From a virus (taxonomy: Duplodnaviria; Caudoviricetes), in the IMG/VR virus record IMGVR_UViG_2636415525_000002, positions 1 to 64,000 of that record: a stretch of DNA of 64,000 nt. One strand, written 5' to 3'. A model generated the notes under the pieces. That model did not search any database. It was not told where the DNA came from and was given only the letters and a program-made list of their open reading frames with translations. Both the position numbers and the translations under genes were made by a program. Below are positions 6,001 through 35,629 of the stretch, piece by piece (the first letter of the stretch is position 1; each line of letters starts with the position of its first letter).

Positions 6001-9000
6001 GTCGTGCGTCGAGCTGATCTGGCCGTTCGTGTTCGTGATGGCGCCGGCCGTCGTCACGTTCACGTCGCCGTTCGAGTTCGTGACGTTGCCAATGGTGCCG
6101 CCGCTGTTGTCCAGGGTGTTGCCTTGAACATGCAGCGATGCACCGCTGAGCTGACCGCTTTGCGTATTGCTGATCGACGCGGCGCTTACCGTCACATCGC
6201 CATTGCCGGTAATCGCGCCCATACCCGCTACGCCGCCGGCGTGGCTGTTGGCGATCTGGCTATCGCCTTGCACGGTCATCTTGCCCACGCCGAGATCGAC
6301 AATGGCCCCGTCCGCGTTGTCGATCGAGGCCGATTGAATGGCGAGCGTGCTAGCGTCGCCCGCAACCGATTGCCCCGCCTGAATGTGGCCGCCTCGGTTT
6401 GACAGAGCACCGCCATTCTTCAACGACAGCGACGCGTCCGATCGCAGCAGGCCCTGCGCGTTGTTCACGTCGCCCGCAATCGTGGCGTTGATGCCGCGCT
6501 GCGCGGCGAGGATACCGCTCGCGTTGTTCCAGGCGGCCGCGTTGACGATGGCTTGTCCCTTCGTCACGATGGTGCCCGACGCGTTGTTCAGCGCGCTGGC
6601 TCCATTGCCCGGCGCGATCGTCAGCGTGCCGGTGCCGGCATGCGTAATGGTGCCGCCTGCGTTGTTCAGCTCGGCCGGCGTGAGCGTCAGGTCCGTGCTG
6701 TTGGTCTGGATCACGCCGGCGGCCGAGTTGTCGAGTGTGCCGCTGACGTTCATCCCCATCGCTGACGATCCATACTGCGTGATCGTACCTCCGTGGTTCA
6801 CGAGGTTCGCGGCCGTCAGCGCAAGCTGATTGGCCTCGAGCTTGCCGCCGCTGTTGTCGAGCGTGGAATCGGCAGTGACCGACAGGTTCGGCCCGACGAT
6901 CGAACCGCCCTGATTCGTCATCGAGCCTGTGTGGATCGTTGCGTTCGTGCTCGCGCCGATCTGGCCGCCGTCGTTCGCGAGCGTACCGCTGGTGACGCTC
7001 AGATCCGTGTTCGACAACAGCTTGCCGTTCGCGTTGTTCAGCGTGCCGGCGACGGCTGCCGTCAGTCCGTTCTGCGCGTTGATCGAGCCCGATGCGTTGT
7101 TCAGCGCGCCGGTTTGGGCGACGACGCGCCCGTTGCTCGCGATCGAACCGCCTACGTTCGACACCGAGCCCGAACCGCCGCCGAGCGTCAGCGTGCCGTT
7201 GCCGGCATGCGTGATCGTGCCGCCGTCATTGACGATTGCCGTCGGCGCGAGCGTCAGATCAGTACTGTTGGTCTGCAGCGTGCCGCCATTCGAGTTGTCG
7301 AGCGTGCCCGACACGTTCACGCTCATCGCGCCGGCGCCGGTCTGCGTGATCGTGCCACCATGATTCACGATGTCGGTCGCGTTGAACGACACCTGGCTCG
7401 CCTGCACGGTGCCCGCGCTGTTGTCGAGCGTCGTGGCGCTGATCGTTGCCGTCTGGCCGGCGATCGAGCCGCCGTTGTTGACCAGGCGCGCGCCCGCGTC
7501 GACGGCCACTTTTTGCGCAGCCTGCAGCGTGCCGCTGCCGTTGTCGACCGACTGGCCCGATACCCGCAGATTCGTGTTGGATGTAAGCGCGCCGCGATTG
7601 ACAACGTTTGCGCCCTGGATCGACACATCGCCGTTGCCGCCGATCACGCCGCCTTGCGCGCCGTTCGCGGTGGTACCCGCCGCATTGGTCAACTGGCCGC
7701 TCGCCGTCACCGACAGGCCATCACCGTTGAGCGACGTAATTCGGCCCGCCGTATTATCCAGCGACGCACCGGCCACCGTCATGCCGGCCGCGCTTTGCAG
7801 GGTGCCCTGGTTGTTCGCGATGGCGCCGCCATGCACGTCCGCCGCGCTCTCGGATACCAGTTCGCCGGACTGGTTGGCGATCTGGCCGGCCACGTTGACC
7901 GACAGCGGCCCCTGCGACGAAACCTTGCCGCCCTGGTTCGACAGATTGCCGCCGGTCAGCGTCGAGCTCCCGCCGCTCGACAGGTTGCCGTGATCGTTGA
8001 TCACGGTACCCGATGCATTCGCTTGAATAGCGCCTTGCGCGCTCGTCGTCGCGTTCGACAGATTCACGTCGCCGGCCGTCGCGTTCAGCGACAGATTGCC
8101 GTTCGCCGCCGTCTGGCTGCCGGCGAGATTCACGCTGGCACCCGTCAGCGACGCATTGCCGCCCGCCACATTCTGGCCGGTCGCGGTCAGTTGGCCCGAC
8201 GCACTCAGGTTCAGGTCGCCGCTGTGCGTGACGGAACCGTCGTTGTTCACGCCAGCGCCGAGCGTGCCGGTCGAGTTGACGCTGCCAGCGTTGACCGTTG
8301 TATTTTGCTGCGCTGCGAGCGTGCCGGTGTTCGTAAGATCGGCGCTTGTGTTGGCCGACAGAGATTGCTGCGCGTACGTGGTGCCGCTATTCTGGATGCC
8401 GCTGGCGGCCGACAGCGCGAGGTTGCCGCTCGCGGTCGTCTTGCCCGTGAGCACGAGCCGGCCATCCGATTGCAGCGTCAAATCGCCTGCCTGCGCCGCG
8501 ATCGTCCCTGCGTTCGCGACGCCCACGCCTGCGGAGTTGCCAACCAGAAACACCCTATTGGCATACATGCCACCTAACTGAGCCACGTCAATCGCGACAG
8601 CCGGGGCAGGACCGTCGCCGGCAATCTGCGTCGCGGCAAGCGTGTCGTGATTAACCTGATTCGTACCGGCAATTACATTGAGATTCTTCGCATAGATCGC
8701 GGCATTTGCCTGTACAGCACGGGCGATGATGTCAGTCTGATCAACATTCGAGGTATCCAGGCCCGCACCTTGCACGGTCACCAGGCCGCGATTAACATTG
8801 AAGCCCGTCAACGATCCGTCCGCGCCAAACTGCGGCACGCCAGTTGTCAGGACCGCACGCGAGGTATTGATGAACCCGCCACCGTCCACGACGATACCGG
8901 CAGGGTTGGCCAGCACGATCTCCGCACGACTTCCCGCTATCTCGACGTACCCTTTGATCTGGCTGGCCGCCGTGCTGTTAACCTGGTTGACGATGATGCG

Positions 9001-9444
9001 CGCCGCCTGCCCCGCGCTCAGGTTCGGATTGCCGTTGATATAGCCGGCCTGCTGCGTGTTGACGATCGTCGGCGAGTTGTTCAGGATCGCGCCAGCATGC
9101 GACACGTCAAACTGGTTGTAGGTGTTCAGCGAAACGCCAGCACCACCCGGCTTGTTGATATTCACTTGCGGCAGGCCGTTGGGCGTCTGGATTACCGATG
9201 GTGCATTCGGCCCCGCCCCGACGATTTGTGCGTGCGCCCACATCGGTATCGCGCCTGCGGCAATCAGCGCGCCGAATGCGGCAAGACGTAACGCGAATTG
9301 CGTCACTACCTGCACACCGCTGCGATTGAGGGTACGCCGCGTTTCACCTGCGCTTGCTTTCCCCGCTGAGCTGGCCGTTTCTTCCACTGCGACCAACATA
9401 CCGTGCACGCGGCTGAACACCAGCCGATAATGGTTTTTATTCAT
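1..9444 (-). CDS. cdiA: CdiA/BcpA contact-dependent growth inhibition exoprotein (filamentous haemagglutinin family) with C-terminal nuclease-like toxin
   Basis: 3147 aa. ESPR-type N-terminus (MNKNHYRLVFSRVHGMLVAVEE), TPS domain (NPNL, NPAGI), long FHA repeats, the Burkholderia CT-demarcating NELYN motif (1114-1128) and a C-terminal E...FDG...NEVKP motif. Confidence 0.93.
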   Translation of the reverse strand: MNKNHYRLVFSRVHGMLVAVEETASSAGKASAGETRRTLNRSGVQVVTQFALRLAAFGALIAAGAIPMWAHAQIVGAGPNAPSVIQTPNGLPQVNINKPGGAGVSLNTYNQFDVSHAGAILNNSPTIVNTQQAGYINGNPNLSAGQAARIIVNQVNSTAASQIKGYVEIAGSRAEIVLANPAGIVVDGGGFINTSRAVLTTGVPQFGADGSLTGFNVNRGLVTVQGAGLDTSNVDQTDIIARAVQANAAIYAKNLNVIAGTNQVNHDTLAATQIAGDGPAPAVAIDVAQLGGMYANRVFLVGNSAGVGVANAGTIAAQAGDLTLQSDGRLVLTGKTTASGNLALSAASGIQNSGTTYAQQSLSANTSADLTNTGTLAAQQNTTVNAGSVNSTGTLGAGVNNDGSVTHSGDLNLSASGQLTATGQNVAGGNASLTGASVNLAGSQTAANGNLSLNATAGDVNLSNATTSAQGAIQANASGTVINDHGNLSSGGSSTLTGGNLSNQGGKVSSQGPLSVNVAGQIANQSGELVSESAADVHGGAIANNQGTLQSAAGMTVAGASLDNTAGRITSLNGDGLSVTASGQLTNAAGTTANGAQGGVIGGNGDVSIQGANVVNRGALTSNTNLRVSGQSVDNGSGTLQAAQKVAVDAGARLVNNGGSIAGQTATISATTLDNSAGTVQASQVSFNATDIVNHGGTITQTGAGAMSVNVSGTLDNSNGGTLQTNSTDLTLAPTAIVNDGGTITHAGNGTLTLGGGSGSVSNVGGSIASNGRVVAQTGALNNASGSINAQNGLTAAVAGTLNNANGKLLSNTDLSVTSGTLANDGGQIGASTNATIHTGSMTNQGGSIVGPNLSVTADSTLDNSGGKLEANQLALTAANLVNHGGTITQYGSSAMGMNVSGTLDNSAAGVIQTNSTDLTLTPAELNNAGGTITHAGTGTLTIAPGNGASALNNASGTIVTKGQAIVNAAAWNNASGILAAQRGINATIAGDVNNAQGLLRSDASLSLKNGGALSNRGGHIQAGQSVAGDASTLAIQSASIDNADGAIVDLGVGKMTVQGDSQIANSHAGGVAGMGAITGNGDVTVSAASISNTQSGQLSGASLHVQGNTLDNSGGTIGNVTNSNGDVNVTTAGAITNTNGQISSTHDLSVAAATLQGGGTYSATRDANVNLQGDYTAASDTQFNVGHDLAFTLPGTFTNNANLQSVNNLSVHAGTIFNVGALTAGGLLHTQSTNLINTGALVGASASLNATNTISNLGPTALIGASDSNGTLEILAHDIENRDDTTATDSMATTAIFGMGKVVLGGGKDASGNYTNAALVNNVSALIQSEGDMELHADKITSTRRVMKTSTSAIDPSLLGQFGIPISGRTGQVGVKDPDSIGGVYTEPPHGGQWNSTYQFTTYYADSATATTVTDISPAAQIVSGGKIDASSVGTLQNYWSNIAAVGDIKMPARYDADGWAASGQNLPGVSVSYSGQYHYNNYDNTEHDWQLPFGNAPFVTGRPGGYTQAAPASIKDYKLPGYFSTMSSNGTISGTGVSVSNTAGNASIPSLGLLPGQSVPGLTPTNLSGNASGAKSGASAVHGGQSAPVDPIIASATALNVLNNLTIPQGGLYRPTTAPNASYVIETNPAFTNQKNFISSDYFFGQLGVDFTHIPKRLGDGFYEQQLVRNEVTSLTGKAVLGPYADLETMYQSLMAAGADLSKSLDLPIGASLSADQVSKLTSNVVMMETRVVDGQSVLVPVVYLAKASQQNIDGPLISATNVDFQNAQSFTNSGTIKADNTLAIQGKQIDNAFGALQSGGLMSLKTENNVDLTSANVKAGSLQLDAGKDLILDTATKTNTRVSRDGATSVVTTLGPTAKLDVAGDASITTGGNFQQNAGNLSVGGNLGMNVGGNWDLGAVQTGEHKIVQRANGVSNTDINKVTGSSVTVGGQSSIGVGGDLTAKGAQIDLGQGGTIAAKGNVTLGAASATSTVNSNSSGSDSHGSYAETLHTSDQALTGTTFKGGDTVTLASGKDLTISGSTVSLDKGNANLMASGDVNIGAATETHVLNSHETHSHSNVVSGVQVASGIDQTATYSQGSTVSADGVNIVSNRDINVAGSNVVGTNDVTLQATRNVNITTSQDTTQSSSYFDKKESGLLTNGGLSVTVGSRSAAQQDQSSSVTNKGSVIGSSQGNVTIQAGKDATITGSTIVAGQDVGIAAQNVTVNAAYDTYKDAQSQQFSQSGLSVGLGGGLVGLGQSMAGAVRQGQQSGDSRLAAVQAVAAAEQAYQNRGGIKDAANALSNGNVSEAAKGVQVQFSIGSSHSSSNATTSISSAKGSSIIGNGNVSITATGTPDANGNAQAGTGNIAMTGASVLGKNVALDANNAITLQSAQSTEQSTSSNSSTGWNAGVAIGVGKNTGISVFANGSNSHGQGNGDSVTQTNTTVAAGNTLTMKSGGDTTLSGAKVSGDKVKVDVGGDLTMTSLQDTSNYSSNQHNTGVSGSFTFGYGGGVDASIGHTSIDANYASVNQQTGIVAGKEGFDVNVAGHTQLNGAQIASAAPADSNTLTTGSLGFTDIQNKMSYSGSSEGFSTSGGPSFAQTGDSASGVTRAAVSPAKIVVKSDEQNGTDSTAGLSRDTANANQTVENTFNLQKVQNNMAFAQAFGKVATFAVAEAATQLENSSPQMKALFGEGGAGRDALHAAVAAIGAALSGGNIGGAVAGSLAGDVLQSLAQPIIDQTVSQLPLSAQAAARNALNEIVATAGGAAAGAVAGGGSSGALAGAGSAVNNELYNRQLHVEEVKVVEQLAKEKAQAVCRGDSSCVAKATTYWTDMLERAAKGMVDDTANKENMAYLQTLIQTANNPTSEGAMGGLSSYLTNLQTAQDMLSQYMGKPILVRGSPIISDGSAQTYFSATPEQRSNQSLNAILGSLPGSIVPGASQRDQSRVDSFATQNGSVKPDYTIEETVIGGILTNKIASTAARVGESIDVWLAGPVNPTGKGFISTGKVTMESMPVKLNTAEQGVLSQLDQLPSKDLQGQAREYVANNYFVRNGFTPLDGKCGANCFDGVYVKGNTVYVNEVKPLNESGSISLNPPNSATGLPGQQTDNWVAYSVQRLKDTGDPQLIKTAEVVEQAFRNGNLVKTVSGVNSNGMVVVKVPRNTP

Positions 9445-19905: not shown

Positions 19906-20493
19906 TTGTCGCATACCAACGTGCAACCGCTTGTCGGCCAGCTCAACGGCCCGGGCAACGTGAGCGCACACGGCACCATTCACGGGATTCCGTACCTGCG
20001 GCTCGCCGGTGGCGCGAATGCGATGATTCTCAATCCGCAGGTCGTCGACGTCGGACTCGTCGTGGTCTGCGATCGCGATACATCGTCGGCGCGTGCGAAT
20101 CTCGCGCCCGCCGCGTCCGGCAGCTTGCGCAAGCACGATCTGTCCGATTCGGTATACGTGTCGACGGTGCTGTCAGGCGTGCCGCAGCAGTACGTCGCGG
20201 TGCTGCCGTACGGCATCAACATCGTGTCGCCGAAACGCATTCGACTCTCCACACCGTCGATCGCGATTCAGGCGTCGAACGACATCGGCATGATGGCCGG
20301 CGGCGAACTGACCAAAGCCGCACCCGCCATCGCGCTCGATGGCGCAGTCACACAAGGTAAAGGCCACGAACGGCGGTACGGCCAGCATGGCTAGGCACTC
20401 ATCGTACAGCGCGACGTCGCCGCCGACGGCAAGAGCGTTCGCGATCATACACACCGCGATTCACAGGGCGGCACGACAAGCCCACCGATTTAA
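19906..20493 (+). pseudogene. Degenerate phage baseplate spike (Gp138/GpV-like) fragment
   Basis: NVQPLV...IPYLRLAGGANAMILNPQVVDVGLVVVCDRD...HDLSD. A shifted frame continues to DGKSVRDHTHRDSQGGTTSPPI*, a spike-tip HxH motif. No proper start. Confidence 0.7.
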
Positions 20494-20528
20494 GCGTGAC
20501 CGTGACGAGTTGACGCCGTGATGGCACC

Positions 20529-21140
20529 GTGATACGAATTCACACGCGGTTCGCGAATCTGATCCCTGTGAGTTCCAATATGACGCCCATCCAATTTAGA
20601 ACGATCGAAGAAGCCAAAGCGCTCGCGATTCCCGACACGTCTATGGCGTCGATGGACGAAGCGCGTCGAGATTTCGATTTTGCCGTCAACGGGAACGCGA
20701 GTCGACTCGTGAAGGTGAGGCGCATCTATCACGCGGCAGACCTCCTGGCGGCGGCCGTTTCGTCCGTAGCGGTATGCCAGAAAGGCTGCAATCATTGTTG
20801 CCACATCGACGTCGGGATCGTCGAAGTTGAAGCGCAATATATCGAACGAAATGTCGGTGTGAAGATGAAGGCGGGCTCGAGGCGAAGCTCTGGCTATGGC
20901 GAGACCAAAACGCCCTGCCCCTTCTTGCAAGCCGACGGCGCATGTGGCATCTATGAATTCAGGCCGTTCGCTTGCCGGACACACTTCGCGCTCGATGATC
21001 CACGCTATTGCGACGAGAACACCACCACGCACGTGACATACGACTCTCGCGGTAATCCCATGCTATCTGGATTGGCACGCTTGCTCATGCAATTGAACAA
21101 TCGAAATAACTGGCGAGATATTCGCGATTTCTTTGGCTGA
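20529..21140 (+). CDS. YkgJ-family cysteine-cluster (Zn/Fe-S) protein
   Basis: CQKGCNHCC ... CPFL...CGIYEFRPFACR. Start uncertain. Confidence 0.85.
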   Translation: MIRIHTRFANLIPVSSNMTPIQFRTIEEAKALAIPDTSMASMDEARRDFDFAVNGNASRLVKVRRIYHAADLLAAAVSSVAVCQKGCNHCCHIDVGIVEVEAQYIERNVGVKMKAGSRRSSGYGETKTPCPFLQADGACGIYEFRPFACRTHFALDDPRYCDENTTTHVTYDSRGNPMLSGLARLLMQLNNRNNWRDIRDFFG

Positions 21141-21424
21141 CGAATTCGAGCACCTTCGGGCTCACGACTTTTCGGCATCGGCGGATTCCGCATCGTTAGC
21201 GCGAACCTTTTTCGGCTGCCCTATACGAGACCTTCGCTGCTTGGCCGAGGCCATGCCCGCTCACCCACGCTCATGCTGTCATCGCGGCATGACGTATCGC
21301 TCACACTGGACTTCGAATTGACGATGCCTCAGGCATTCGTGTGTGCTCTTCGTCGCATTCGACAGCTTCAGATACAATCCTTCGAATCTGGTGGTAATGA
21401 GAAACTGCGATTAACGGAGCACAT

Positions 21425-22825
21425 GTGGACGCGAGTCAGACCGAAATCTTTTCCGCTCTTTTCTCGCCGGCGGCATTCTCAGAGGTCTTCACTTCGCGGT
21501 TCGCCAGAGCACGTAGCAAAGGCATCGACCGGTTGAGCGGATTTCAGTTTGCGCAACGGTCTGCTGTGGCTCTCACAGTCGCCAGCTACAAGTGTGTGAA
21601 CGGCTCGTTTCGCTTCTCGCCGTACCTCGAAGCGTTGAAGCTCAAGGGACGAGGTAAAGCCCCACGCGTGGTTGGAATTCCAACCATCAGGGACCGAGTT
21701 GTCTTGCATCAGCTCAATGCGTTCCTGAAGACCGTTTTCCCGGAATGCATTCCAGCAAACATTGCAAACGGGTATGTGCGACAGATAGCGGCCGACATTC
21801 CGCTACGCGCACCGAACGAGACGTTTGTCTACGGCGGAGACATTAAGAATTTCTACGATGCGATTCCCCGCGAACGCATGGTCAAAGTACTGGAAAAACG
21901 GATTACGGTTCCTGCGGCGCTAGACCTGATTCGAAGGGCAATTGCCACACCGACTGTCACCAAAAATTCTACCCGTACCCGGCGAAGCACAGGAGGACTT
22001 GAGCGCGGCGTTCCTCAGGGTCTGTCGATTTCGAATCTTCTCGCTGCGATCTACTTGCACTCGGTAGACGCGGAAATGCGTCGCTCTTTCAACGTAAGTT
22101 ACTTTCGCTACGTTGACGACATTCTGATCTACGGCGCGCGCAACGACGTTGAAAAAGCAAAGGCATCGCTCAAGGCGCGCCTGCAACGACGAGGACTGAG
22201 CCTGCACGCGGCTGGCTCAGGCAAGGCCCATTTTGCGGCGCTGGAAGAGCCGTTCGGCTATCTTGGCTATCTGTTCAACTCGCCAGCGATTACGGTTCGT
22301 GAGTCCACTGTAGAGCGGCTTCTGCAGTCACTTTCCGCACAGTTCAGTAGCTTTTCTCACAACAAGGATCGGCGTCTCGAAAAACACGCCTACCTCAACA
22401 TTGAACGCCTTAAAGAGATTTTTCTTCTCGAGCTCAACGATCGGATCACAGGCGCAATCAGCGAGAACCAGCGCTTCGGCTGGATCGCATTTTTCAGCCA
22501 GATCAACGACCTGACGCTTCTTCATCGTCTCGACTACGCGGTAAGCGCCATGTTTGAGCGCCTGCCTGAATTCGATCGCCGAAGCCCGCCCGGATTGAAG
22601 CGGTTCGCCCGAGCCTTTTTCGAAATCAAGTATCGACCCAACGGCAGCTACGTGCGCAACTACGACAGGAACGACACGCCGGTGCGAATGCTGCAGTTTC
22701 TAGTCGAGCGCGGCCGGGTTGCTCCGACAGAAATGCTGACCGACCAGCAGATTGCCAATCGTTACCAGAGTTACCTCGCTCGAGCGTTGGCCGCCATGCA
22801 TGCCGACGAAGGCTTCGCATACTAG
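21425..22825 (+). CDS. Reverse transcriptase, UG/Abi defence-associated type (UG17/DRT10-like)
   Basis: KGID (region 0), PTIRDR, DIKNFYD, GVPQGLSISN, catalytic YVDD, YLGY, and a C-terminal helical extension with GWIAFFSQIND. GGAG RBS then GTG. RT identity is secure, the subfamily is inferred. Confidence 0.9.
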   Translation: MDASQTEIFSALFSPAAFSEVFTSRFARARSKGIDRLSGFQFAQRSAVALTVASYKCVNGSFRFSPYLEALKLKGRGKAPRVVGIPTIRDRVVLHQLNAFLKTVFPECIPANIANGYVRQIAADIPLRAPNETFVYGGDIKNFYDAIPRERMVKVLEKRITVPAALDLIRRAIATPTVTKNSTRTRRSTGGLERGVPQGLSISNLLAAIYLHSVDAEMRRSFNVSYFRYVDDILIYGARNDVEKAKASLKARLQRRGLSLHAAGSGKAHFAALEEPFGYLGYLFNSPAITVRESTVERLLQSLSAQFSSFSHNKDRRLEKHAYLNIERLKEIFLLELNDRITGAISENQRFGWIAFFSQINDLTLLHRLDYAVSAMFERLPEFDRRSPPGLKRFARAFFEIKYRPNGSYVRNYDRNDTPVRMLQFLVERGRVAPTEMLTDQQIANRYQSYLARALAAMHADEGFAY

Positions 22826-22841
22826 GGAAGTCGGCTATACT
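22814..22841 (+). promoter_or_regulatory. Putative sigma70 promoter for the intergenic ncRNA
   Basis: TATACT -10 box at 22836-22841, weak -35 TTCGCA at 22814-22819. Predicted TSS near 22848 coincides with the 5' arm of the closing stem. Confidence 0.55.
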
Positions 22842-22847
22842 TTTTGC

Positions 22848-23013
22848 GCGCGACACCTACCGCCGTTAGGTGGTACCTCGGGCCCAGGGCCACGAGCGGA
22901 AGTGCTCCATTTTCGGCTTCATGCCGATTCCCGTTTCCCCGGGAACCTCGTGCGGACGCTGCTGTATGCGTTGTCGGGCGAGTGGATATTGCCTGATCCT
23001 CCAGGTGTCGCGC
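22848..23013 (+). ncRNA. Putative RT-associated structured ncRNA (template RNA)
   Basis: Perfect 11-bp terminal inverted repeat GCGCGACACCT / AGGTGTCGCGC enclosing five or more hairpins, located between the RT and SLATT genes. Confidence 0.75.
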
Positions 23014-23032
23014 CCTTCCTGACGAGGCGCTA

Positions 23033-23671
23033 ATGAGAGATACACTAGAACGACTAAAAACGACCATCTGGATCACTGCAGGTGCCCGATACAACGCGTC
23101 CAGACGTCTATTGCTTCGAGACTCGTTTTCGACCGTCAGCCTTGCCATGTTCTCGGTGGTGACAATCGGTCTGGCCGTCGTTCAGAAAATCTACTTTACC
23201 GCAGACTCGCCTGCCGACAAATACGGCACTGTACTGGGCGTTACCCTCGGCGCGTTCCTTCTCGCCATCAGCCTTCTGGAAGCGGGAAAAGGCAACGCCC
23301 TTTTGGCCGATGCCTTGCACCGCAACGCGGAAGAACTCACAGCGCTTACAAAGCGCATTGATCTACGAGTCTCGGCACACGATGCCGGCCGGTTGTTGAC
23401 TGAAGCAGATTTGGCCGAGTTCAACGAGGGCTATGAATCCATCAAGGCTCGCTGCGTCACGAACCACGCACCCAAGGATTATCTCCTCTTCATCGGTGAG
23501 AAGCGCATGGCACCGGAGTTTGCGAAACAAGACGGAACTCCCCGCGTGACCGGGTGGCAGTATCGTTGCCGACACACTTGGTGGCTTCTGTCGAGCGTCT
23601 GGTATTTTCTTTTGCTGTGGCTTACGATCGCCTACCTATGCTACGAAAACTGGGCCCAGTACGCGCGATGA
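23033..23671 (+). CDS. SLATT-domain (SLATT_5-like) transmembrane effector
   Basis: IWITAGARYNASRRL N-terminal motif, two TM helices, conserved H..A..L, YE...NH..DY and a C-terminal TM helix. GAGG RBS. Confidence 0.8.
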   Translation: MRDTLERLKTTIWITAGARYNASRRLLLRDSFSTVSLAMFSVVTIGLAVVQKIYFTADSPADKYGTVLGVTLGAFLLAISLLEAGKGNALLADALHRNAEELTALTKRIDLRVSAHDAGRLLTEADLAEFNEGYESIKARCVTNHAPKDYLLFIGEKRMAPEFAKQDGTPRVTGWQYRCRHTWWLLSSVWYFLLLWLTIAYLCYENWAQYAR

Positions 23672-23723
23672 GCGCTCAACTCGCCGTCCGAAGCTACGTC
23701 GTACCAGCGTCGCAGGCCCATCG

Positions 23724-24458
23724 ATGATAAATGCTCTTCCTTTCGCGCTCGTTTTGTACTGGCTGCTCGAATATGTGGTCAGGCGCGCAAGCTACTGTGC
23801 TGAAATGGAGCCTCCCGCCTTTCAACCGCCGTGGCAAACGGGATGCGAATGGGCCATTGTGATTAGCCCGGGATTCTGGCTCTCGCATTATTTCAAGAGC
23901 CGCATTCAACATTTCGCCGGCACCAACGCGGTGTCGGCCAGAAGAACCCTGATTACGCGAAGCAATTGGCTCAACGTGTTGGTCAGTATGATACTTCTAA
24001 TTCTGGGCCTCCTTACGGTGCTTGCGGCGCGCGGGACATTCGGCTGCTCGCTCGTCGCTGACCTCGTCGTGGTGCGCTACATTTCGCGCACCACCGAGAT
24101 CGGCTACGCATTTGGACGCGATGTCATGACGCCCCCCGACAACCGGAGCGGCCTCGACAAGCATGCACGTCTTACGCTCGCACTGCGTAGTTACGTCGAA
24201 CTGTTCGTGCTTGCTGTGCCAGTCTATCTCCTCTGCGTGCCGCACTACGAGACCGTGCTCAAGGCTCTTACGCTCTCGCTATCTGTCGGCACGCTCACCA
24301 ACGTCGGATACGGCTTCGTGGACGGGCACGGATTTCGAGCGCTTCTCGTCTTTCCCCAGGTTTTCTCAACGCTTAGCCTGGTCTTGCTCAGCCTTGCTTC
24401 CTACATTTCCCGGCCAGAGCCGAAAACGACTCGCGAAGCGGACACGGAGCCAAAATGA
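23724..24458 (+). CDS. Membrane protein with potassium-channel-like pore signature
   Basis: Several TM helices, with SVGTLTNVGYG between the last two resembling the TxGYG selectivity filter. Confidence 0.65.
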   Translation: MINALPFALVLYWLLEYVVRRASYCAEMEPPAFQPPWQTGCEWAIVISPGFWLSHYFKSRIQHFAGTNAVSARRTLITRSNWLNVLVSMILLILGLLTVLAARGTFGCSLVADLVVVRYISRTTEIGYAFGRDVMTPPDNRSGLDKHARLTLALRSYVELFVLAVPVYLLCVPHYETVLKALTLSLSVGTLTNVGYGFVDGHGFRALLVFPQVFSTLSLVLLSLASYISRPEPKTTREADTEPK

Positions 24459-24830
24459 TCATGTCGTTTTACCTCGATGAAAGCGGTCACAGTGGCAACC
24501 TCGTCAAGATTGGCGCTGCATACGATTTTCTTGACCAGCCGTACTTCTCACTGGCTGCGTCGGCGTTGAAGACGAGCAGCGATTGATGCGCCTGGTCGGC
24601 GAATTGAAACTCCGGCATCGGTTGCCGTCAGGCGAGCTCAAATCAAAGGGATTAGTGAGCAAACCAGCGTTCGTTTGCTGAACTCATCGAGACGAATCTA
24701 CGAGAGCATTTGCCTGTATTCGTTGAAGTGGTCGACAAGCGATATTTCGCTTGCATTCAAGTCGTCCTCAACCAGCTCTTGTCGCCGGTTCTGGGCTACG
24801 GACATCTGCGCTGTGCAACTCCGAGCTGAA
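24455..24830 (+). pseudogene. Frameshifted, truncated DUF3800-like gene
   Basis: Starts MIMSFYLDESGHSG. Other frames give GELKSKGL and VFVEVVDKRYF. At least two frameshifts. End approximate. Confidence 0.6.
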
Positions 24831-25170
24831 GCTTTTCCCGTAAGGCACTCGTTCCCCAACAATCTCCGGCCGCTTCCGGGTCACGTTCGCGTCAGCCTGC
24901 ATGGTCTACTCGTTTCCTCTCATTGCCACGGCATATTGGAAGATATTTAGTTGCCTTGGTCTCAATGCCATGCTCGTTCGAGCCGTGTACAGACAGTTTG
25001 TCGATCTCTGCTGCCAGGCGACGAGATCTCCAAGGAGCACCAAGAACAAGCGCGGCAAACGGAACGACAGACTTTTCCTCGTTGAGCATGGCTATAATGG
25101 TTCGCAGCACTCTTCAGCATTTACAACACGGTAAAAAGAATACAGACATCGTCTCTACGGGGAAACCATC

Positions 25171-26589
25171 ATGCCAGCACTCGACGAAAAAATCGTCGCC
25201 GACGTGGCCGAACGACTTCGCCGACACCTCGCCGGTAAAGCGGGATACGGGGATGCAGAATATCTAGCATCAGGTGGGTCAGCAGCAGTATTTTTAGTCC
25301 CGTCGCCTGCAGGGCAGTCCGTGTTCAAAGGATTTAACCCGAAATTCCTTGACGGAGTCTCGGGAGCCGCCGAGCGAAAGCGTTTAGATTTGCAACGAAA
25401 GCTAATAGGACATACTTGCCCTTCGCTAATCCAAACATTCGACGTTATCGAAGCCGAGGGTACGGCTTTCGTAGAGATGGAATACCTGGACTGGCCGCCA
25501 CTCACCGAAACTCTCGGCACGGTACCCGATGAAGCAATCATTCCCCTATTCACTCAGCTCGTCGACGCAGTTAAGTTTTTGGACACGCTCGGGATGGTCC
25601 ATCGTGACATCAAACCCGAAAACATCCACGTTTCGGCAGATTTCACGGCACTTAAACTGCTCGACCTTGGAGTTGTGCGAGAGATTGAGCAGAACGACGC
25701 CCCAGATGGCGCAATAACGGACCATGGAAGTACTCGACCGTTTCTTGCCACCGCGCAGTACAGTTCGCCAGAATACCTGTTCCGACTGGATGAGCCGTCT
25801 CCGAAACTATGGAAGGGGCTAAACTTCTACCAGCTTGGCGCCGTACTGCACGACCTCGTAGCAAAGCAGCCTCTATTTCAGTACGAGATGAGCCTCGAAA
25901 ATAGATGGCTTGTCGCGCGAGCGGTGCTCACAAAGGTGCCTGTATTCGTCGACGGCAACGCTGCACGATTGGCAAGCCTAAAATCGCTTGCGTCGCGTTG
26001 CCTCGTGAAAGATTTGGAATCCCGGCTCCAACTGGTAGGCTGGGAGGATTTCAATTTAGGGGATACGAAGGACCCCCTAGCCACATTGCGCGCCAGGCTT
26101 GCGAAAGGCAAGGTGAATGTGGGCGGCCAATTGAGCGCGGCCAACGCCTCGCGGCTCGACTTCGATAGAGGCGAATTCTTCCGTCGCTTCTGCGAAATGG
26201 TTCGGACCGAACTCTTGCAGGTATGCGGAACCGATATGCCTCTCACGCTCCGCCCGTCGGCCCCCGGAGATGTGCAGGTTGCTCAGCTAATTTTAGCTGT
26301 AAGCTCCGAGTGGACAGTCGAGTGCGAGCTACATTTCGATTGGCAGCAACAGCTTTATGAAAGAACCGTCAACGTGTCGCTTCAGGCAAAGTTGGTGCAA
26401 GCGGCGCAGCCCGTTGGTAAAGTTCAAACTAGCGCGAGGTTGGTCACCGTAGCTTCTATCGGAGAAAACGAAGCAGAGGGGGCCGCGACGGCTGCCTGCG
26501 CGGTGGCACAAGTGGCAGGCTCTGCTCTTGACCGACTAGAGAGCGCAGCGGATGCAAGCACACTCCACGATGCCGACCTAATTGCGTAA
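25171..26589 (+). CDS. Hanks-type Ser/Thr protein kinase with C-terminal domain of unknown function
   Basis: LASGGSAAVF Gly-loop, VFK, HRDIKPEN catalytic loop, DLG and YSSPE. TATAAT upstream at 25093-25098. Confidence 0.9.
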   Translation: MPALDEKIVADVAERLRRHLAGKAGYGDAEYLASGGSAAVFLVPSPAGQSVFKGFNPKFLDGVSGAAERKRLDLQRKLIGHTCPSLIQTFDVIEAEGTAFVEMEYLDWPPLTETLGTVPDEAIIPLFTQLVDAVKFLDTLGMVHRDIKPENIHVSADFTALKLLDLGVVREIEQNDAPDGAITDHGSTRPFLATAQYSSPEYLFRLDEPSPKLWKGLNFYQLGAVLHDLVAKQPLFQYEMSLENRWLVARAVLTKVPVFVDGNAARLASLKSLASRCLVKDLESRLQLVGWEDFNLGDTKDPLATLRARLAKGKVNVGGQLSAANASRLDFDRGEFFRRFCEMVRTELLQVCGTDMPLTLRPSAPGDVQVAQLILAVSSEWTVECELHFDWQQQLYERTVNVSLQAKLVQAAQPVGKVQTSARLVTVASIGENEAEGAATAACAVAQVAGSALDRLESAADASTLHDADLIA

Positions 26590-26604
26590 ACCCGGGGAGC
26601 AAAA

Positions 26605-27768
26605 ATGAACAAAGGTTGGTTTAGGTCAGTAAAAGAGCTTGACGACGACCAGAAGGCGTTCATCAAGCTTCCTCCATATGGCAAACACTCACTGGTTGGG
26701 CCGCCCGGATCAGGAAAGACAAATCTCTTATTACTTCGCGCAGAGTTTCTTGCGGGTACTGGCGAGAAGAATGTCCTTATTGTTACCTATACTCGTGCGC
26801 TGGCCGATTTCATTCGGACAGGCATCGGAGCCGCCGGCCTAATATCTCCCGACCAAGTTAAAACTTACCACTCCTGGGCATCAGACCATATTTTTCAGTA
26901 TTTGGGCCGTCCTGCACTGCAAAAGAACATTGACTTTGACGACCAGTCTCGCGCCGAAGTATTGGCATTGGTTAAAGAAGCAAACCTCCACATCCCAGCC
27001 CCCAAGCTCTTTAGCGCGATATTCGTAGATGAGGCGCAAGATCTAACATCAGAAGAGCTGGAGGCCCTTTTGGGCTTAAGCGATAATGTTTGCATTTGCG
27101 GCGATAATCGCCAGGGAATTTATAATCGAGATGGATTGACCATCGCCGACAAGTTGAGCTTGCAGCAGCACACTTTAAAGCGCCATTTTCGCATTGGCCA
27201 GCGCATAGCGCGCGTTGCGGATCGTTTGTTGCCACCCGCGTCGGGTGCTAATAGCCTAGAAGCGACGTCAAACTATAACCCAAAGGAACAAGGGGAATCC
27301 AGTGCGAAAATGCATCTCTTGAAAAGCAGGGATGAACAGTTCGAGAAGATGCTCGAAATAATACGCATCCAGCTTGATGCTTTTGCCGGCGACACAATCG
27401 GGATTTTTTGCGGAAAAAAGGATACCCGAACCGAGTTACGTGAAAGATTCAATTCGACCGACCTTGCCGATAAAGTGGCAGTTCATGGGGTGGATGCCGA
27501 TTCGACTTTCATGGGTGGGCGCCCGATTCATGTTTTAACTATGCATGGCGCAAAGGGAACCGAATTTCGGGCTGTGCATATGTACGCCACCGAGGAGCTT
27601 GCCGATTTTCCATTGAATCGTTCCCGACTTGGGTTTACGGCAATAACGCGAGCAAAGACCGCGCTGAATGCTTATCGCACAGGCGAAACAAACAAACCTC
27701 TCGAAAATGCATTCTCCGAACCAACGCATTTTGACCTTGAAGATTTACTGCCAGGTGATGCAGCATGA
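26605..27768 (+). CDS. Compact superfamily-1 (UvrD-like) helicase/ATPase
   Basis: GPPGSGKT, VDEAQD, GDNRQGIY, HFR, HGAKGTEF and TAITRAK. Confidence 0.88.
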   Translation: MNKGWFRSVKELDDDQKAFIKLPPYGKHSLVGPPGSGKTNLLLLRAEFLAGTGEKNVLIVTYTRALADFIRTGIGAAGLISPDQVKTYHSWASDHIFQYLGRPALQKNIDFDDQSRAEVLALVKEANLHIPAPKLFSAIFVDEAQDLTSEELEALLGLSDNVCICGDNRQGIYNRDGLTIADKLSLQQHTLKRHFRIGQRIARVADRLLPPASGANSLEATSNYNPKEQGESSAKMHLLKSRDEQFEKMLEIIRIQLDAFAGDTIGIFCGKKDTRTELRERFNSTDLADKVAVHGVDADSTFMGGRPIHVLTMHGAKGTEFRAVHMYATEELADFPLNRSRLGFTAITRAKTALNAYRTGETNKPLENAFSEPTHFDLEDLLPGDAA

Positions 27769-29174
27769 ATGAACACTTCATTCGTTGGCAAATGTACCCA
27801 CGGGATATTGTTCCCGAGGCGCTATTGGGTGCACTCCATCGTTGGAACGGCCCCGCGCAATTCTCGATTGAACCCTATGACCTAAGGGAGTCGCGGATAG
27901 CCGTTGGGTATTCCGATTCGCGGATGAGAGCCGACTACAATCCGCCTGTTCTCTTAGTGCTTGAAGACGAGTCGGCCATTGAAGCGCTTGCGTGGCTTAG
28001 AACATATGCTCCCGAGACAGCACCGCTGAGCCAGTACGCGCGGGTAGTCACCAGTCAAGATTGGGCGATTTTCAATAGACCCCCGCGAGATGTACGCGAT
28101 TCACGAGAGGATATTTGGGCGTCTGTCATTTTGGGTGAGGTTTTGGCGCATGGTGAAACCGACGTCGAACTGGCAGCTGTTCCTCTTTCGCGCGCTGGGG
28201 CATGTTTCTCCATGGCAATCGCACGGGCAGCCTGCACACATGGAACGGACGAGGCGACCAAGATGTGTGCCGACCGGCTGCGGCAGGTCGAAGCAGACCG
28301 ACGTTTCGTTCGGCGCGCAGTTACGGTCAGCGATCTGATGCCCATCTGGGCGATGGCTGGAGGTCAATTTGGAACGCCCGTTTCCGTCGAGGAGACCGCT
28401 AATCTGGTCCTCGATGCTGCGTTGAAGTTTATGCGCGACTCCGACCGCGCCGCCTTATTTTCAACGTCATTGAGTCTACAGAACATCCCGGGGCTCTCAA
28501 GCGATTCTATTGAAGAACGGGTCTTGGCTTTTCAACGTCTTTCTGCCGAATTAACAAATACAGAGTTACACGGTGCCAACAACGGACTACCCTCTGTCCT
28601 GCTCGCAGCAGCCGCATTCTTAGTAGGTCGGAGCACGTCCCATGTATTCCTGTTGAATCGCATTAGCAAGCGATTTCCTGCCGCACTAGCGTGGTACGGG
28701 CTGATTGCCGGGCTCGCAGGTCCATCAGCCTGGGATGCCGGGTGGTCTAAGGCTGCCAAGGGCATAGAGCGACAAGTGCGGTCGCGCTTCGACTGGTCGG
28801 AGTCCACAGGATTCGACCTGTGTTGGATTGAGTACTCATGGATGGCCTCAACCTTCGACGGACCAGATGCCTTCAATTCGCTCCCGAAGCTATCGCCTCG
28901 GGTCATTTCAATCGAAACCGTTCCCGGTGCGACATGTCAATTTCGTTTGGCGACAGGTTCCACGCTGGATTCGGATGCTCGGCTATCCAACGACAATACT
29001 CGCGAGAAGGATCTTCAGGCAGCCTTGTCGCAGTTTGTGACGCTAGCTAACCGAGCCCGCCATTTGCTGGAAGCGGCATATGTGCCCAGTCAGCAGAGCA
29101 TGGAGTTGTTCGATAGCGACGTCATCGCGCGCGGACGTTCCACTAAGGGCAAGAAAGGGAAATCCTCAAGCTAA
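27765..29174 (+). CDS. Hypothetical protein (469 aa), third gene of the kinase-helicase operon
   Basis: ATGA overlap with the helicase stop. Long ORF with no motif I recognise. Confidence 0.8.
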   Translation: MNEHFIRWQMYPRDIVPEALLGALHRWNGPAQFSIEPYDLRESRIAVGYSDSRMRADYNPPVLLVLEDESAIEALAWLRTYAPETAPLSQYARVVTSQDWAIFNRPPRDVRDSREDIWASVILGEVLAHGETDVELAAVPLSRAGACFSMAIARAACTHGTDEATKMCADRLRQVEADRRFVRRAVTVSDLMPIWAMAGGQFGTPVSVEETANLVLDAALKFMRDSDRAALFSTSLSLQNIPGLSSDSIEERVLAFQRLSAELTNTELHGANNGLPSVLLAAAAFLVGRSTSHVFLLNRISKRFPAALAWYGLIAGLAGPSAWDAGWSKAAKGIERQVRSRFDWSESTGFDLCWIEYSWMASTFDGPDAFNSLPKLSPRVISIETVPGATCQFRLATGSTLDSDARLSNDNTREKDLQAALSQFVTLANRARHLLEAAYVPSQQSMELFDSDVIARGRSTKGKKGKSSS

Positions 29175-29387: not shown

Positions 29388-29461
29388 GGGCTCGTAGCTC
29401 AGTTGGTTAAAGCAGTCGACTCATAATCGATTGGTCGCCGGTTCGAGTTCGGCCGGGCCAA
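29388..29461 (+). tRNA. tRNA with CAT anticodon, Ile2 (lysidine)-like, with imperfect acceptor end
   Basis: TAGCTCAGTTGGTTAAAGCA D arm, GTCGA-CTCATAA-TCGAT anticodon arm and GCCGG-TTCGAGT-TCGGC T arm. G1:A72 mismatch and no encoded CCA. Confidence 0.8.
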
Positions 29462-32449: not shown

Positions 32450-33991
32450 TTAACCAGCCAGTTCAACGAAGTTCAAATTGAGGAGTCGCGCCTTCATCTG
32501 ATCTCTCCACTCGTCACTGCCGAGCGAATCCCTTAGGACATCGTCAATCGCCTCCTCACGAACGCGCCATTCATCGTCTTCATCCGAGTACGGACGACGC
32601 TGGCGCAGATTGCGGTACTCCGTTACGCAAGCTCGAACAAGAAAGCCCCACTCCGAATTGTCAGTTTCGAGTTGAACTTGCTCAACATGCGCAACTTGAG
32701 CAACTTGAGCAACTTGAGCAACTTGAGCAACATTATGCGATACCGGCGCGGCAATGCTTGCCAAACCGAGCGGTACGTCGCCCGGGAACGGCACAATGCC
32801 CTGACCAGACGAACCACCTATATCAAAGATCGATCTCATCGCCTGATGCGACTGCCCGGGATGGCCGCTGAAATGCGCGGTTCCCAGCGCCCCGGGCGAC
32901 ATCGAACCGCCACAATTCAAAGACAAGTACCAGCGTTTCTCACCCATAGGCCGGCTGCTACTTACTCCGATCTTGCCAAATGCGCGACGGACAGTCGCCC
33001 ACGACAATCCAGCTCGCGCCGCCTCCTCTTGAACAACCTCGCTTGGCACCGGACCGGTAGCCAGTATCTCGCTCAAAAAGTCCGCAGCTTCCTGTAATCG
33101 ACTGTCTTTCGTCAGAACACTTGCACCGTCCGAGGCTTCGCTCAGGATTTCCTTGGGCGATCCGTCCAATGGCCCATCCCAAACGATCTTTGAACTTTCC
33201 ATGGTTCCTCTAGGCGTCGGAATGTCGGCTGCCTCCACGTGATATGCCAAACCGCCGTCAGTCGGACCAATGTTTGACTTAGCGCGTACGATTACGCTGC
33301 GCGGCACACCATCACCCGCGCGATCGCTTTCGTCCGGTGCAACAATCATCACGATTCGCGCGACCGCGCCGAAGGCGATGCTTCCATTCACGCGTTCAAG
33401 CGGATCTTTCTTTTTTGATCCCTTGGTTACGTGAGTGAGGCCTAGAACTGCGGCGCCGGTTTGCTCAGCAAATACCACAACGGGTTCAAGATCCTTACGT
33501 ACTTGAGTGTTGCTGTTCGAGTTGCCGGATACGATCTGCGCAATCGAATCGATGATGACAAGAACAACATCACGGAGCTCCTGGAGCTTTGCAGCAAGCC
33601 GCGGTAGATCGACACGAAAGTCGAACGCGCGACTGCGACCATTTTCGCTCGTTTCCCGCAGGATATAGACATTCTCGAGATTGGCACCGCTCGCGGCGAG
33701 CCTTGGCATCAAAGTATCCTCGACCCCATCTTCGCAGGTCCAGATCAACACTCGACCTCGAGGGGCACTGCTACCGTCTGGCCATGCACCACCGACCGAC
33801 AACGTCGCAGCGATCGCAAGAGCCAGCGTTGTCTTCCCTGTTGACGGGGGGCCAGCGAGGAGATGTAGCTTTCCGCGCGCCAACCAAAACTTCCACAACC
33901 AAAAGATTGGGAACATGGGAATCTCGCTTGCTGCCTCAAGGACTGGACCGTTCCCATTCGCCCCGAGCTTCGACCAAATGTTAGTGTGCAT
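32450..33991 (-). CDS. RecA-type AAA ATPase (RepA-like replicative helicase)
   Basis: GPPSTGKT, CEDG, VIIDS, THVTK, GSIAF.AVAR and KSNIG, plus a C-terminal winged-helix-like region. Confidence 0.85.
   Translation of the reverse strand: MHTNIWSKLGANGNGPVLEAASEIPMFPIFWLWKFWLARGKLHLLAGPPSTGKTTLALAIAATLSVGGAWPDGSSAPRGRVLIWTCEDGVEDTLMPRLAASGANLENVYILRETSENGRSRAFDFRVDLPRLAAKLQELRDVVLVIIDSIAQIVSGNSNSNTQVRKDLEPVVVFAEQTGAAVLGLTHVTKGSKKKDPLERVNGSIAFGAVARIVMIVAPDESDRAGDGVPRSVIVRAKSNIGPTDGGLAYHVEAADIPTPRGTMESSKIVWDGPLDGSPKEILSEASDGASVLTKDSRLQEAADFLSEILATGPVPSEVVQEEAARAGLSWATVRRAFGKIGVSSSRPMGEKRWYLSLNCGGSMSPGALGTAHFSGHPGQSHQAMRSIFDIGGSSGQGIVPFPGDVPLGLASIAAPVSHNVAQVAQVAQVAQVAHVEQVQLETDNSEWGFLVRACVTEYRNLRQRRPYSDEDDEWRVREEAIDDVLRDSLGSDEWRDQMKARLLNLNFVELAG
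32673..32731. repeat. 9-bp tandem repeat (GCAACTTGA)x4 plus degenerate copies
   Basis: Visible directly. Encodes VAQVAQVAQVAQVAHVEQVQ. Confidence 0.9.
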
Positions 33992-34057: not shown

Positions 34058-35629
34058 TCAGCTGTCGTCGCGGAGTTGATCAGCTATGGCCCACGGCATG
34101 AGCTGATCGACACGATTGATTGCGTGATCAGCAATGCGGGCAAGGACGAAGCGCAGATACGCTTCGGGATCGATGCCGTTGAGCTTCGCCGTTCCGATGA
34201 GGCTATAGATCGCGGCAGCGCGCTCGCCGCCGGAGTCGGCACCGGCGAACAGGTAATTCCGCCTCCCGATGGCCACTCCACGCAACGCTCGCTCGACCGG
34301 CAGGTTATCGATCTCGAGTTGGCCGTCGTCGCAATAGCGTGTGAGCGCTTCCCATCGGTTCAGCGCATAGAGAATCGCCCGACTCGTATCGGATTTCTTT
34401 GAGAGTGTCTCCAGCGTGGCGGTGAGCCAGGCGTGAAGCTGACTGAGAAGCGGTCGGGCATGTGCTTCTCGATACGCACGACGCTCGTCGGGCGGTTTGC
34501 CGCGTATCGCGTCTTCGATCTTGTACAACGCACCGATACGCTCGAGCGCTTCGGTATTCAATGCGTTCGGGCGCGCAGCGTGTAGCTCATAGAACTGGCG
34601 TCGGGCATGCGCCCAGCAGGCAGCTTCCCTCACGCGTCCGGTCTCGTAGATAGCCTGGTAGCCGCCATAGGCGTCCGCTTGCAGCGTGCCGCTGAACGTC
34701 TCGAGATGTTGTTGCGGATGGATGCCTTTGCGATCCGGCGTGTAAGCGAACCACACCGCTGGCGGCGTCATATCGGCTGACGATCGATCGTCACGCACAT
34801 AGACCCACAAGCGGCCAGTCTTCGTCTTGCCGTTGCCCGGTTCGAGCACTGGAACCGGCGTGTCGTCGGCATGCAGCTTCGTCCCGGTCATCACATGACG
34901 GCGTAATGCATCGACCAGTGGTTGTAAAAGCGTCGCGCCGTGGCCGACCCACTTCGCGAGCAACGAGCGGTCGAGTTCGACGCCTTCACGCGCATACATG
35001 ACCGACTGCCGATACAGCGGGATGTGGTCTGCGAACTTCGAGACCAGCACGTGCGCGAGTAGTCCAGGGCCCGCCAGGCCGCGCTCGATGGGACGACTCG
35101 GCGCTGCTGCTTGCGCGATGTGATCGCAGCACGCGCAGGCGAACTTGGGCCGCACATGACGGATTACGCGGAAGCTCGCAGGTACATATTCAAGTTGTTC
35201 GGAGACGTCTTCGCCTAGCAGCTTGAGCTTGCCGCCGCATTCCGAGCACGTCTCGGTCGATTGCGGCAAGTGCGTTTGCTCTTCACGTGGCAGATGCTCG
35301 GGCAGCGGCTTGCGAGGCGACTGTTCCGGCGCGGTACGAGGTGTCTTCGGGATTTCGATCGGAGCCGCGCCTTCGTCCGCTTCGAGTTCTTCCAGACGCA
35401 GTTCGAGTTGTTCGATCTGACGATCGAGCTTCTCCGACTTGCGACCGAACTGCATGCGGCGCAGCTTCGCAATCAGCAGCTTCAGATGCTCGATCTCTGC
35501 CTTGGCGGTGGCGTTCGCCGCCTTGTGCGATTCGACTACGTCCTCGAGATGCCCAATGCGAGCATCGCGCTCGAGCAGCATGGCTTTGAGCGCTTCGATG
35601 TCGTCCGGATAGGCGTTGGCCGCGGTCAT
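34058..35629 (-). CDS. tnpC: IS66 transposase TnpC
   Basis: FGRKSEK, CSECGG zinc finger, HADDTP, CWAHARR and [11 protein letters not shown]. Confidence 0.95.

Follow-up and report, generated by a model that had tools for sequence, protein, structure and literature searches.

In this work, we analyzed a window of 64,000 nucleotides (positions 1 to 64,000 of the IMG/VR virus record IMGVR_UViG_2636415525_000002, Caudoviricetes, a record of the provirus class with 97,424 bases) and, within it, a locus made up of a reverse transcriptase (RT) gene, a spacer and a gene for a SLATT membrane protein. The initial annotation had proposed that these elements form a DRT10/UG17-like antiphage system with a structured non-coding RNA (ncRNA) between the two genes. 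All three lie on the plus strand, and the lengths, coordinates and co-orientation given there match the list of open reading frames (ORFs) exactly:

21425-22825, plus strand: RT ORF, 466 aa, GTG start, with GGAG 9 nt 5' of the start
22826-23032, plus strand: spacer between the RT and SLATT genes, 207 bp
23033-23671, plus strand: SLATT ORF, 212 aa, with GAGG 8 nt 5' of its ATG

The reverse transcriptase, its SLATT partner and their relatives

The RT matched the PADLOC model RT_UG17 with an E value of 4.1e-134 and 446 bits over profile positions 3-426 of 429, far above the generic RT model that came second (108 bits) and the models Drt3a (106 bits), Drt2 (68 bits) and Drt9 (47 bits). In Pfam only RVT_1 was found (residues 78-282), and the protein is therefore an RT without endonuclease or maturase domain. 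The catalytic YVDD motif is intact at residues 229-232 and a search of the 466 residues for the VTG tripeptide found none, as the initial annotation had noted for both motifs and for the lack of an intron endonuclease domain. The final residue, Tyr466, is the same in all 20 aligned RTs and corresponds to Y467 of the Escherichia coli RT discussed below; it is the predicted priming residue. The neighbouring 212-aa protein matched SLATT_5 in Pfam (E 1.2e-30) and RTasSLATT (PDLC03819) in PADLOC (E 2.4e-38) and has hydrophobic segments at residues ~31-55, 64-85 and 184-204, in line with the transmembrane third component that had been proposed; a sequence search of the PDB with this protein matched nothing. 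The PADLOC run that had been suggested as a check thus returned RT_UG17 for the RT and RTasSLATT for its neighbour.

UG17 is now named DRT10, and four recent studies describe such systems. Tang et al. (10.1101/2025.10.16.682844) reported a tripartite system of ncRNA, SLATT and RT in which the RNA lies upstream of SLATT and an A-B-A' arrangement in its template loop programs the protein-primed production of complementary DNA (cDNA) in tandem repeats. Ramirez et al. (10.64898/2026.06.29.735271) described two RTs on one pseudo-symmetric RNA with a Loop A and a Loop B, and a C-terminal priming residue, the two homologues differing in whether it is Tyr or Ser. Sanchez-Nieto et al. (10.64898/2026.04.29.721553) distinguished subtypes A, B and C with subtype-specific ncRNAs, predicted upstream of SLATT in all three; UG17-B, which we identified as the RT-SLATT subtype by elimination from that text, has the RT, a spacer of ~200 bp and SLATT, with promoters before both genes, is supported by RNA-seq in Methylotenera mobilis and includes the RT-SLATT locus of E. 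coli H120. The H120 system was tested for defence by Chen et al. (10.64898/2026.10.08.757509), who also reported cryo-electron microscopy structures of RT2:ncRNA1 with the cDNA linked to Tyr467.

Among 8000 scored candidates, a protein search with the RT gave 1162 matches at E values of at most 1e-10; of those with a name, the nearest come from Burkholderia multivorans and B. dolosa (75% identity). None of the 26 matching records of a phage collection, searched in protein mode, covered 80% of the RT, and all were less than 60% identical to it; in a plasmid collection, 10 records covered at least 80% of the RT, with 24-32% identity among those listed, and were not of the same subtype. A genome scan with a 20-sequence alignment yielded 218 stretches, 202 of them encoding relatives, from which the best 80 were kept (L003-L082); the closest relative among these best 80 of 202 is Burkholderia paludis MSh1 (L004, 98% identity). 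An iterated search with the SLATT protein of the window detected a SLATT gene in 72 loci out of these 80; one further match, in L027, was spurious and lay inside the RT frame. The gene orders were distributed as follows:

RT then SLATT, gap of 147-350 bp: 39 loci (38 of them with 147-240 bp)
RT then SLATT, longer gap, RT cut by a contig end: 2 loci (L048, L071)
RT then SLATT, gap of ~10 bp: 4 loci
SLATT then RT: 27 loci

Of the 73 loci in which a SLATT gene was detected, a total that includes the spurious L027, 39 thus have the arrangement RT-spacer-SLATT with a gap of 147-350 bp. We then built a maximum-likelihood tree by a quick method from 71 RTs, namely those of the window and of 69 loci plus a second RT of the same provirus record as outgroup, on a very long branch (L027 and every RT frame shorter than 380 aa were left out). 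The 39 rows with the ~200-bp order (window and 38 loci) fell on one side of a branch with an SH-aLRT support of 100, and the order label changed once along the tree, against a mean of 23.8 changes when shuffled. The phylogeny, which had likewise been suggested as a check, accordingly places the RT of the window inside the RT-spacer-SLATT clade of UG17, as sister to that of B. paludis. The four short-gap loci (L054, L056, L073 and L080, from Fusobacteriaceae, Spirochaetes and two Bacillota; gaps of 8-12 bp) sit among the SLATT-RT relatives, and both ncRNA models described below find nothing in them.

A structured RNA in the spacer

The spacer folds into a closed multi-hairpin structure with a minimum free energy (MFE) of -89.6 kcal/mol and a z-score of -2.65, and 2 of 200 shuffled sequences folded as well; the minus strand gave a z-score of -1.52. 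The z-score alone is modest, and the comparative evidence, that is, the model match and the covariation, is strong, so that it is chiefly these which bear out the closed multi-hairpin RNA proposed for the 207-bp gap. The elements of this RNA, numbered as stem-loops (SL) after the basal stem (P1) and taken for all helices from the MFE folds, and the promoter that precedes it are:

22814-22841, plus strand: internal sigma-70-like promoter, TTCGCA-16-TATACT, from a consensus scan
22848-23013, plus strand: ncRNA, ~166 nt, from model match and covariation
22848-22858 with 23003-23013, plus strand: basal stem P1
22859-22874, plus strand: SL2
22877-22896, plus strand: SL3
22897-22912, plus strand: Loop A, 16 nt, between SL3 and SL4
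22913-22927, plus strand: SL4
22928-22945, plus strand: SL5
22947-22982, plus strand: SL6
22983-23002, plus strand: Loop B, between SL6 and the 3' strand of P1

When 26 spacers were folded singly, nearly all showed the same layout: the basal stem came first, then two hairpins and a loop, then three more hairpins and another loop. The predicted structure of the window, and of most of these spacers, is therefore pseudo-symmetric, with two long single-stranded loops each set between stem-loops. RNAalifold placed a small hairpin inside each of Loop A and Loop B; these hairpins showed no two-sided changes and the loops are single-stranded in the published structures, for which reasons we rejected the hairpins and treated both loops as single-stranded.

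A covariance model (R1) was built from 14 relatives, with the window excluded and the two small loop hairpins removed. It matched the window over its full length at 22844-23017 with 69 bits and an E value of 5e-17. Altogether R1 gave 29 plus-strand matches, all of them in RT-SLATT spacers or downstream of an RT, plus one weak antisense match to the same element. In the 29 distinct spacer rows, (i) 92.3% of the cells were paired, compared with 38.6-47.9% when the partners were slid, (ii) 47 of 50 pairs had changed on both sides, compared with 23-31 when slid, and (iii) none of 500 shuffles reached any of these measures. The iterated model R2 scored the window at 90.7 bits and added seven spacers among 51 further sources, four of them cyanobacterial, two from Gallionellaceae and one from an archaeal metagenome-assembled genome. 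No match of R2 was obtained in the 27 SLATT-RT loci or in the four short-gap loci; likewise, the covariance models of Sanchez-Nieto et al. are described as working only within a subtype.

The -35 element of the internal promoter (TTCGCA, 22814-22819) overlaps the last codons of the RT gene and is followed by the -10 element TATACT at 22836-22841. The consensus scan returned 2 promoter-like sites in the 3-kb region, for 1.0 expected from shuffled sequences; a TAnnnT hexamer was found 8-16 nt 5' of model position 1 in 28 of the 29 ncRNA-bearing spacers. From the position of the -10 box, the ncRNA likely starts with the first nucleotide of P1, near G22848. The promoter at 22814-22841 is predicted to drive the ncRNA and probably also drives SLATT, whose ATG lies 19 nt beyond the 3' end of the RNA. 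The proposal that the RNA between the two genes stands behind a promoter of its own is thus supported by the scan and by the conserved box.

The predicted template loop and its counterpart in E. coli

The profile matches of both proteins and the ncRNA model support the tripartite composition of RT, cis-encoded ncRNA and SLATT, and together with the phylogenetic placement they make an intact DRT10 (UG17) antiphage system of the RT-ncRNA-SLATT subtype UG17-B, the same as that of E. coli H120, the highly probable reading of the locus.

The A-B-A' template pattern that characterizes DRT10 can be recognized in Loop B, which reads, in order, a 2-nt linker, GAUAUUGCCU at 22985-22994, GAU at 22995-22997 and then CCUCC, so that seven nucleotides follow G22995. 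The pattern GAU-N5-8-GAU occurs at offset 2 in 24 of 28 aligned ncRNAs (it is missed in L048, L025, L024 and L034), with template lengths of 10 nt in 15 of them, 9 nt in seven, 8 nt in one and 11 nt in one; the template reads GAUAUGACCU in 11 of these 24. Mean column identity was 0.864 in Loop A, 0.779 in Loop B, 0.685 in paired columns and 0.575 in other unpaired columns. Both loops start with NGGA in the window and in its relatives, and Loop A, whose consensus is cGGAAGUGCuCc, corresponds in the alignment to loop 1 of the E. coli ncRNA. Inspection by eye found no repeated trinucleotide and no A-B-A' repeat in the 16 nt of Loop A; by analogy with Eco_3, it would therefore give only a short abortive product. 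Loop A is the best-conserved stretch of the whole ncRNA, above the template loop. This conservation is at odds with the predicted abortive product.

We also searched 5426 complete E. coli genomes. The window DNA found no match in them; with the Serratia relative L022 as query, 5 of the 5426 matched, and one of these, strain 1008S13 (L083, 461894-470033), was used. It has a 469-aa RT, a 194-bp spacer that matches R2 with 59 bits, SLATT, a tyrosine recombinase and tRNA-Sec; the UG17-B locus lies next to the last two, in a decayed P4-like satellite with pseudogenes for primase, Psu and RhuM. The 16 RT residues taken from Chen et al. (R37, R64, F65, E70, L72, R77, V83, R172, L175, T176, T178, D232, D233, H313, R380 and Y467) all recur in the L083 protein, each with the amino acid and the number given there. 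Nucleotide 1 of the RNA was set at L083:4355, 7 nt after a TATATT box, so that G125, A131 and C132 fit, and six more nucleotides named by Chen et al. (G52, G65, A67, U80, U85 and G113) then fitted unadjusted. As this numbering reproduces 16 residues and nine nucleotides, we treated L083 as the presumed equivalent of H120. The RT of the window is 49% identical to that of 1008S13 (226/464, 2 gaps) and has 15 of the 16 residues at the number minus one, including D231/D232, H312, R36, R379 and Y466.

In the E. coli RNA, Loop B consists of G125-U133, which reads GAUUGGACU, followed by GAU at G134-U136; counted from the base next to G134, seven nucleotides lead up to the basal stem. Chen et al. modeled a cDNA 5'-CAGT-3' whose bases 3 and 4 pair with C132 and A131, and the loop reads ACUG at this place; this places the start of copying opposite G134, with which A' begins, and makes G125-U133 the template of the repeat. 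In the same account, a 9-nt 5' linker runs from G125, on which H313 stacks, and a 7-nt linker lies on the 3' side. The Loop B of the window has the same layout and, on this ground, its predicted product is a tandem array of AGGCAATATC linked to Y466; that the template is exactly 22985-22994, with this 10-nt unit, seems likely from the analogy with E. coli.

The two systems thus agree (i) in the order RT, ~200-bp ncRNA spacer and SLATT, with spacers matched by the same covariance model, (ii) in the catalytic DD, the His that stacks on the template boundary G (H313 in E. coli) and the priming Tyr, all of which are kept in the window, and (iii) in the NGGA at the start of both loops and the GAU...GAU of Loop B with 7 nt after the first copied G. 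They differ in the template, which has 10 nt in the window (GAUAUUGCCU) and 9 nt in E. coli (GAUUGGACU), and in the window RNA having one extra stem-loop, with six helices and ~166 nt, where Chen et al. describe five stem-loops for E. coli and the model match spans 144 nt. The priming Tyr is the last residue in the window and the third from last in E. coli. The settings differ as well, a Burkholderia island in one case and, in the other, a P4-like satellite that lies at tRNA-Sec and has a tyrosine recombinase.

In the published accounts, Eco_1 and Eco_3 (Tang et al. and Ramirez et al.) and the UG17-A system of Escherichia sp. E3659 (Sanchez-Nieto et al.) share with the window the tripartite composition, an ncRNA immediately upstream of SLATT with pseudo-symmetric loops, an A-B-A' template between a stable stem-loop and the basal stem, a C-terminal priming residue and tandem-repeat cDNA, the last two being predictions in the case of the window. 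In contrast, the order in E3659 is ncRNA-SLATT-RT, and its SLATT and RT genes overlap. DRT9 (UG28) and DRT2 (UG2), likewise Class 2 defence RTs, also combine a stand-alone RT with a cis-encoded ncRNA template, and DRT9 is protein-primed too, whereas the profiles of both score the RT of the window far lower, the window has no poly-U template and, according to Chen et al., neither DRT2 nor DRT9 needs a SLATT effector.

By analogy with these systems, the locus might work as follows. Transcription would start from the internal promoter at ~22848, giving an RNA of ~166 nt that would fold into the basal stem and five stem-loops and so present two single-stranded loops. Two RT molecules would bind one RNA, one per loop, and synthesis would be primed from the hydroxyl of the C-terminal Tyr466. 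Copying of Loop B would begin opposite G22995 and run to G22985, its 5' boundary being set by SL6, after which the end of the cDNA would re-anneal on the downstream GAU and the cycle would repeat, leading to a protein-linked array in which the 10-nt unit AGGCAATATC recurs in tandem. Loop A would occupy the active site of the second RT and yield only a short abortive product, to judge from Ramirez et al. and Chen et al. In the published model, the cDNA is kept in check by host ExoI/SbcB and accumulates during infection, in E. coli upon triggering by a phage SSB-like protein; the accumulated cDNA would then activate the SLATT membrane protein, and the infected cell would be stopped.

Alternative readings, genomic setting and significance

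The initial annotation had further suggested that the order RT-ncRNA-SLATT, the internal promoter and the cDNA product might represent an undescribed variant. This suggestion did not find support: the order is that of UG17-B, and this arrangement has already been published and, in H120, experimentally characterized.

Of the other explanations, the one that fares best keeps DRT10 and moves the register, so that another part of Loop B (CCUGAU-CCU, with a 6-nt unit) or Loop A would be the productive template. CCU recurs with a period of 6 in Loop B of the window, which makes a different register possible, and Ramirez et al. describe that either loop can template repeats if it has A-B-A' and that small changes in the linker shift the repeat. 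However, the CCU repeat is present only in the window and the near-identical L004, whereas GAU...GAU stands at a fixed offset in 24 of 28 RNAs and its register matches the nucleotides that pair with the cDNA in the E. coli structure; Loop A, besides, showed no repeated trinucleotide when inspected by eye. We thus consider this alternative unlikely.

It is less probable still, indeed very unlikely, that the locus is a silent or decayed DRT10 copy which no longer defends its host. Such a copy would agree with the mere trace of signal in the RNA libraries and with the scan, which found no clear RT promoter. Nevertheless, both ORFs have their full length, the residues for catalysis, RNA contact and priming are preserved, the ncRNA retains all its helices and both loops, and a 98% identical copy exists in B. 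paludis. Four RNA runs were considered for expression, two of which (X6 and X10, raw-read runs) contained no reads. Run X1 contained two identical 151-nt contigs, covering 22950-23100 and 23172-23322 at a depth of 2-3, which carry no strand information and might stem from DNA carry-over; they are compatible with, and no proof of, a transcript running from the ncRNA into SLATT. Run X2 had a chimera, in which 365 nt of the RT (21907-22271, with 7 differences) are surrounded by unrelated sequence.

Finally, a different RT system (retron, group II intron or DRT9-like homopolymer synthase) is suggested by the names 'retron-type' or 'maturase family' given to public homologues and by a PDB sequence search in which no DRT10 entry appeared and the best matches were group II-like RTs and, also weakly, DRT2/DRT3 (E 7e-13 or weaker), but has next to no probability, because (i) the profile score of 446 bits for UG17 stands against 47 for Drt9, 68 for Drt2 and 106 for Drt3a, (ii) no retron RT model is among the best 25 of the 80 matching PADLOC families, VTG is absent and a scan of 20000-25000 at E up to 1 matched no Rfam family, retron (msr/msd) and group II intron RNAs included, (iii) RVT_1 is the only Pfam domain, with no maturase or endonuclease, and (iv) neither loop has the long uridine-only tract that a poly-dA template would require, the longest run being the UUU at the 3' end of Loop A. 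That the RT is neither a retron nor a group II intron RT, as the initial annotation held, is thereby borne out.

Several observations nonetheless count against the UG17-B assignment or its details. Besides the CCU repeat and the low depth of the X1 contigs, the RNA-pocket residue L175 of E. coli is A174 in the RT of the window. The covariation comes from related sequences and from an alignment made to fit the model, a procedure that favours the structure; moreover, eight RT-SLATT loci have no ncRNA match even with R2. Within the 284 bp directly upstream of the RT, the simple scan returned no promoter; the nearest site is at 21072-21101, ~320 nt upstream. The published references Methylotenera mobilis JLW8 and E. 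coli H120 itself are not in the tree. At the window locus we infer the defence activity, the RNA ends, the cDNA and the priming residue by analogy with the published systems.

The 'island cargo' setting ascribed to the locus is plausible, given a drop in GC content from ~0.60-0.66 to 0.52-0.57 between roughly 18 and 34 kb of the window, mobile-element genes on both sides of the DRT10 locus and the provirus class of the record. The left part of the window carries a TpsA-type haemagglutinin gene, followed by island genes for DUF932, YqaJ, a Gp3-like directionality factor and DUF4942. The first of these genes (1-9444, minus strand) encodes a very large exoprotein of the two-partner-secretion type, at least 3147 aa long, with ESPR, TPS and haemagglutinin repeats; the reading frame reaches base 1, so that the C-terminal end of the protein may lie outside the window. 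The lower-GC stretch (~18-34 kb) carries a methyltransferase, an XRE regulator, the DRT10 locus, a kinase-helicase operon, tRNA-Met, a primase-like ATPase and an IS66 transposase, and phage genes follow to the right of ~34 kb. Just downstream of the defence genes, tRNA-Met (29388-29461), the AAA_25 primase/helicase-like gene (32450-33991, minus strand) and the intact IS66-family transposase (34058-35629, minus strand) are possible island boundary or attachment features.

The genes directly flanking DRT10 are not conserved with the system in its relatives. Two of them were considered as further parts of it: a 244-aa protein (23724-24458) with several hydrophobic segments, encoded 52 bp 3' of SLATT and without Pfam or PADLOC match, and a 203-aa CxxCxxCC protein (20529-21140). 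Among the 80 related loci, homologues of either occur only in the near-identical B. paludis copy L004, and we therefore rejected both. Three tightly packed genes at 25171-29174 (plus strand) are a candidate for a separate defence operon: a Ser/Thr kinase (Pkinase E 1e-20; PADLOC PD-T4-6 E 7.5e-21), a 387-aa UvrD-type helicase (PADLOC C3a187 'NERD+UvrD' E 3e-23, plus GajB-like matches) and a 469-aa protein with no match in Pfam, PADLOC or PHROG. Outside the window, the same provirus record encodes a second, unrelated RT of 433 aa (contig region 90237-91091; L002 1207-2508), which matched the generic RT model of PADLOC best (E 5e-36) and then UG4 (E 2e-22) and has a cytosine-methyltransferase-like gene 3' of it.

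Since the genetics, RNA, product and structure of DRT10 were published in 2025-2026, the locus adds little that is new beyond a clean, intact Burkholderia example. Its practical value is that of an annotated reference, with the boundaries of the ncRNA, the coordinates of the loops and the template, and, for a high-GC host, a predicted 10-nt repeat that is open to falsification. The template loop is, in addition, well conserved in the clade of the window, in contrast to the Eco_3-like RNAs of Tang et al., in which it is described as poorly conserved in sequence. From this conservation it is tempting to speculate, albeit as a doubtful proposal, that SLATT, or else a factor of the host or phage, may read the repeat sequence itself and not only its bulk or single-strandedness. 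If so, the unique 10-nt template of the window, with its two differing positions, would represent a variant in specificity rather than neutral drift. The conserved template loop of the clade could, in that case or otherwise, bear on how the cDNA is sensed.

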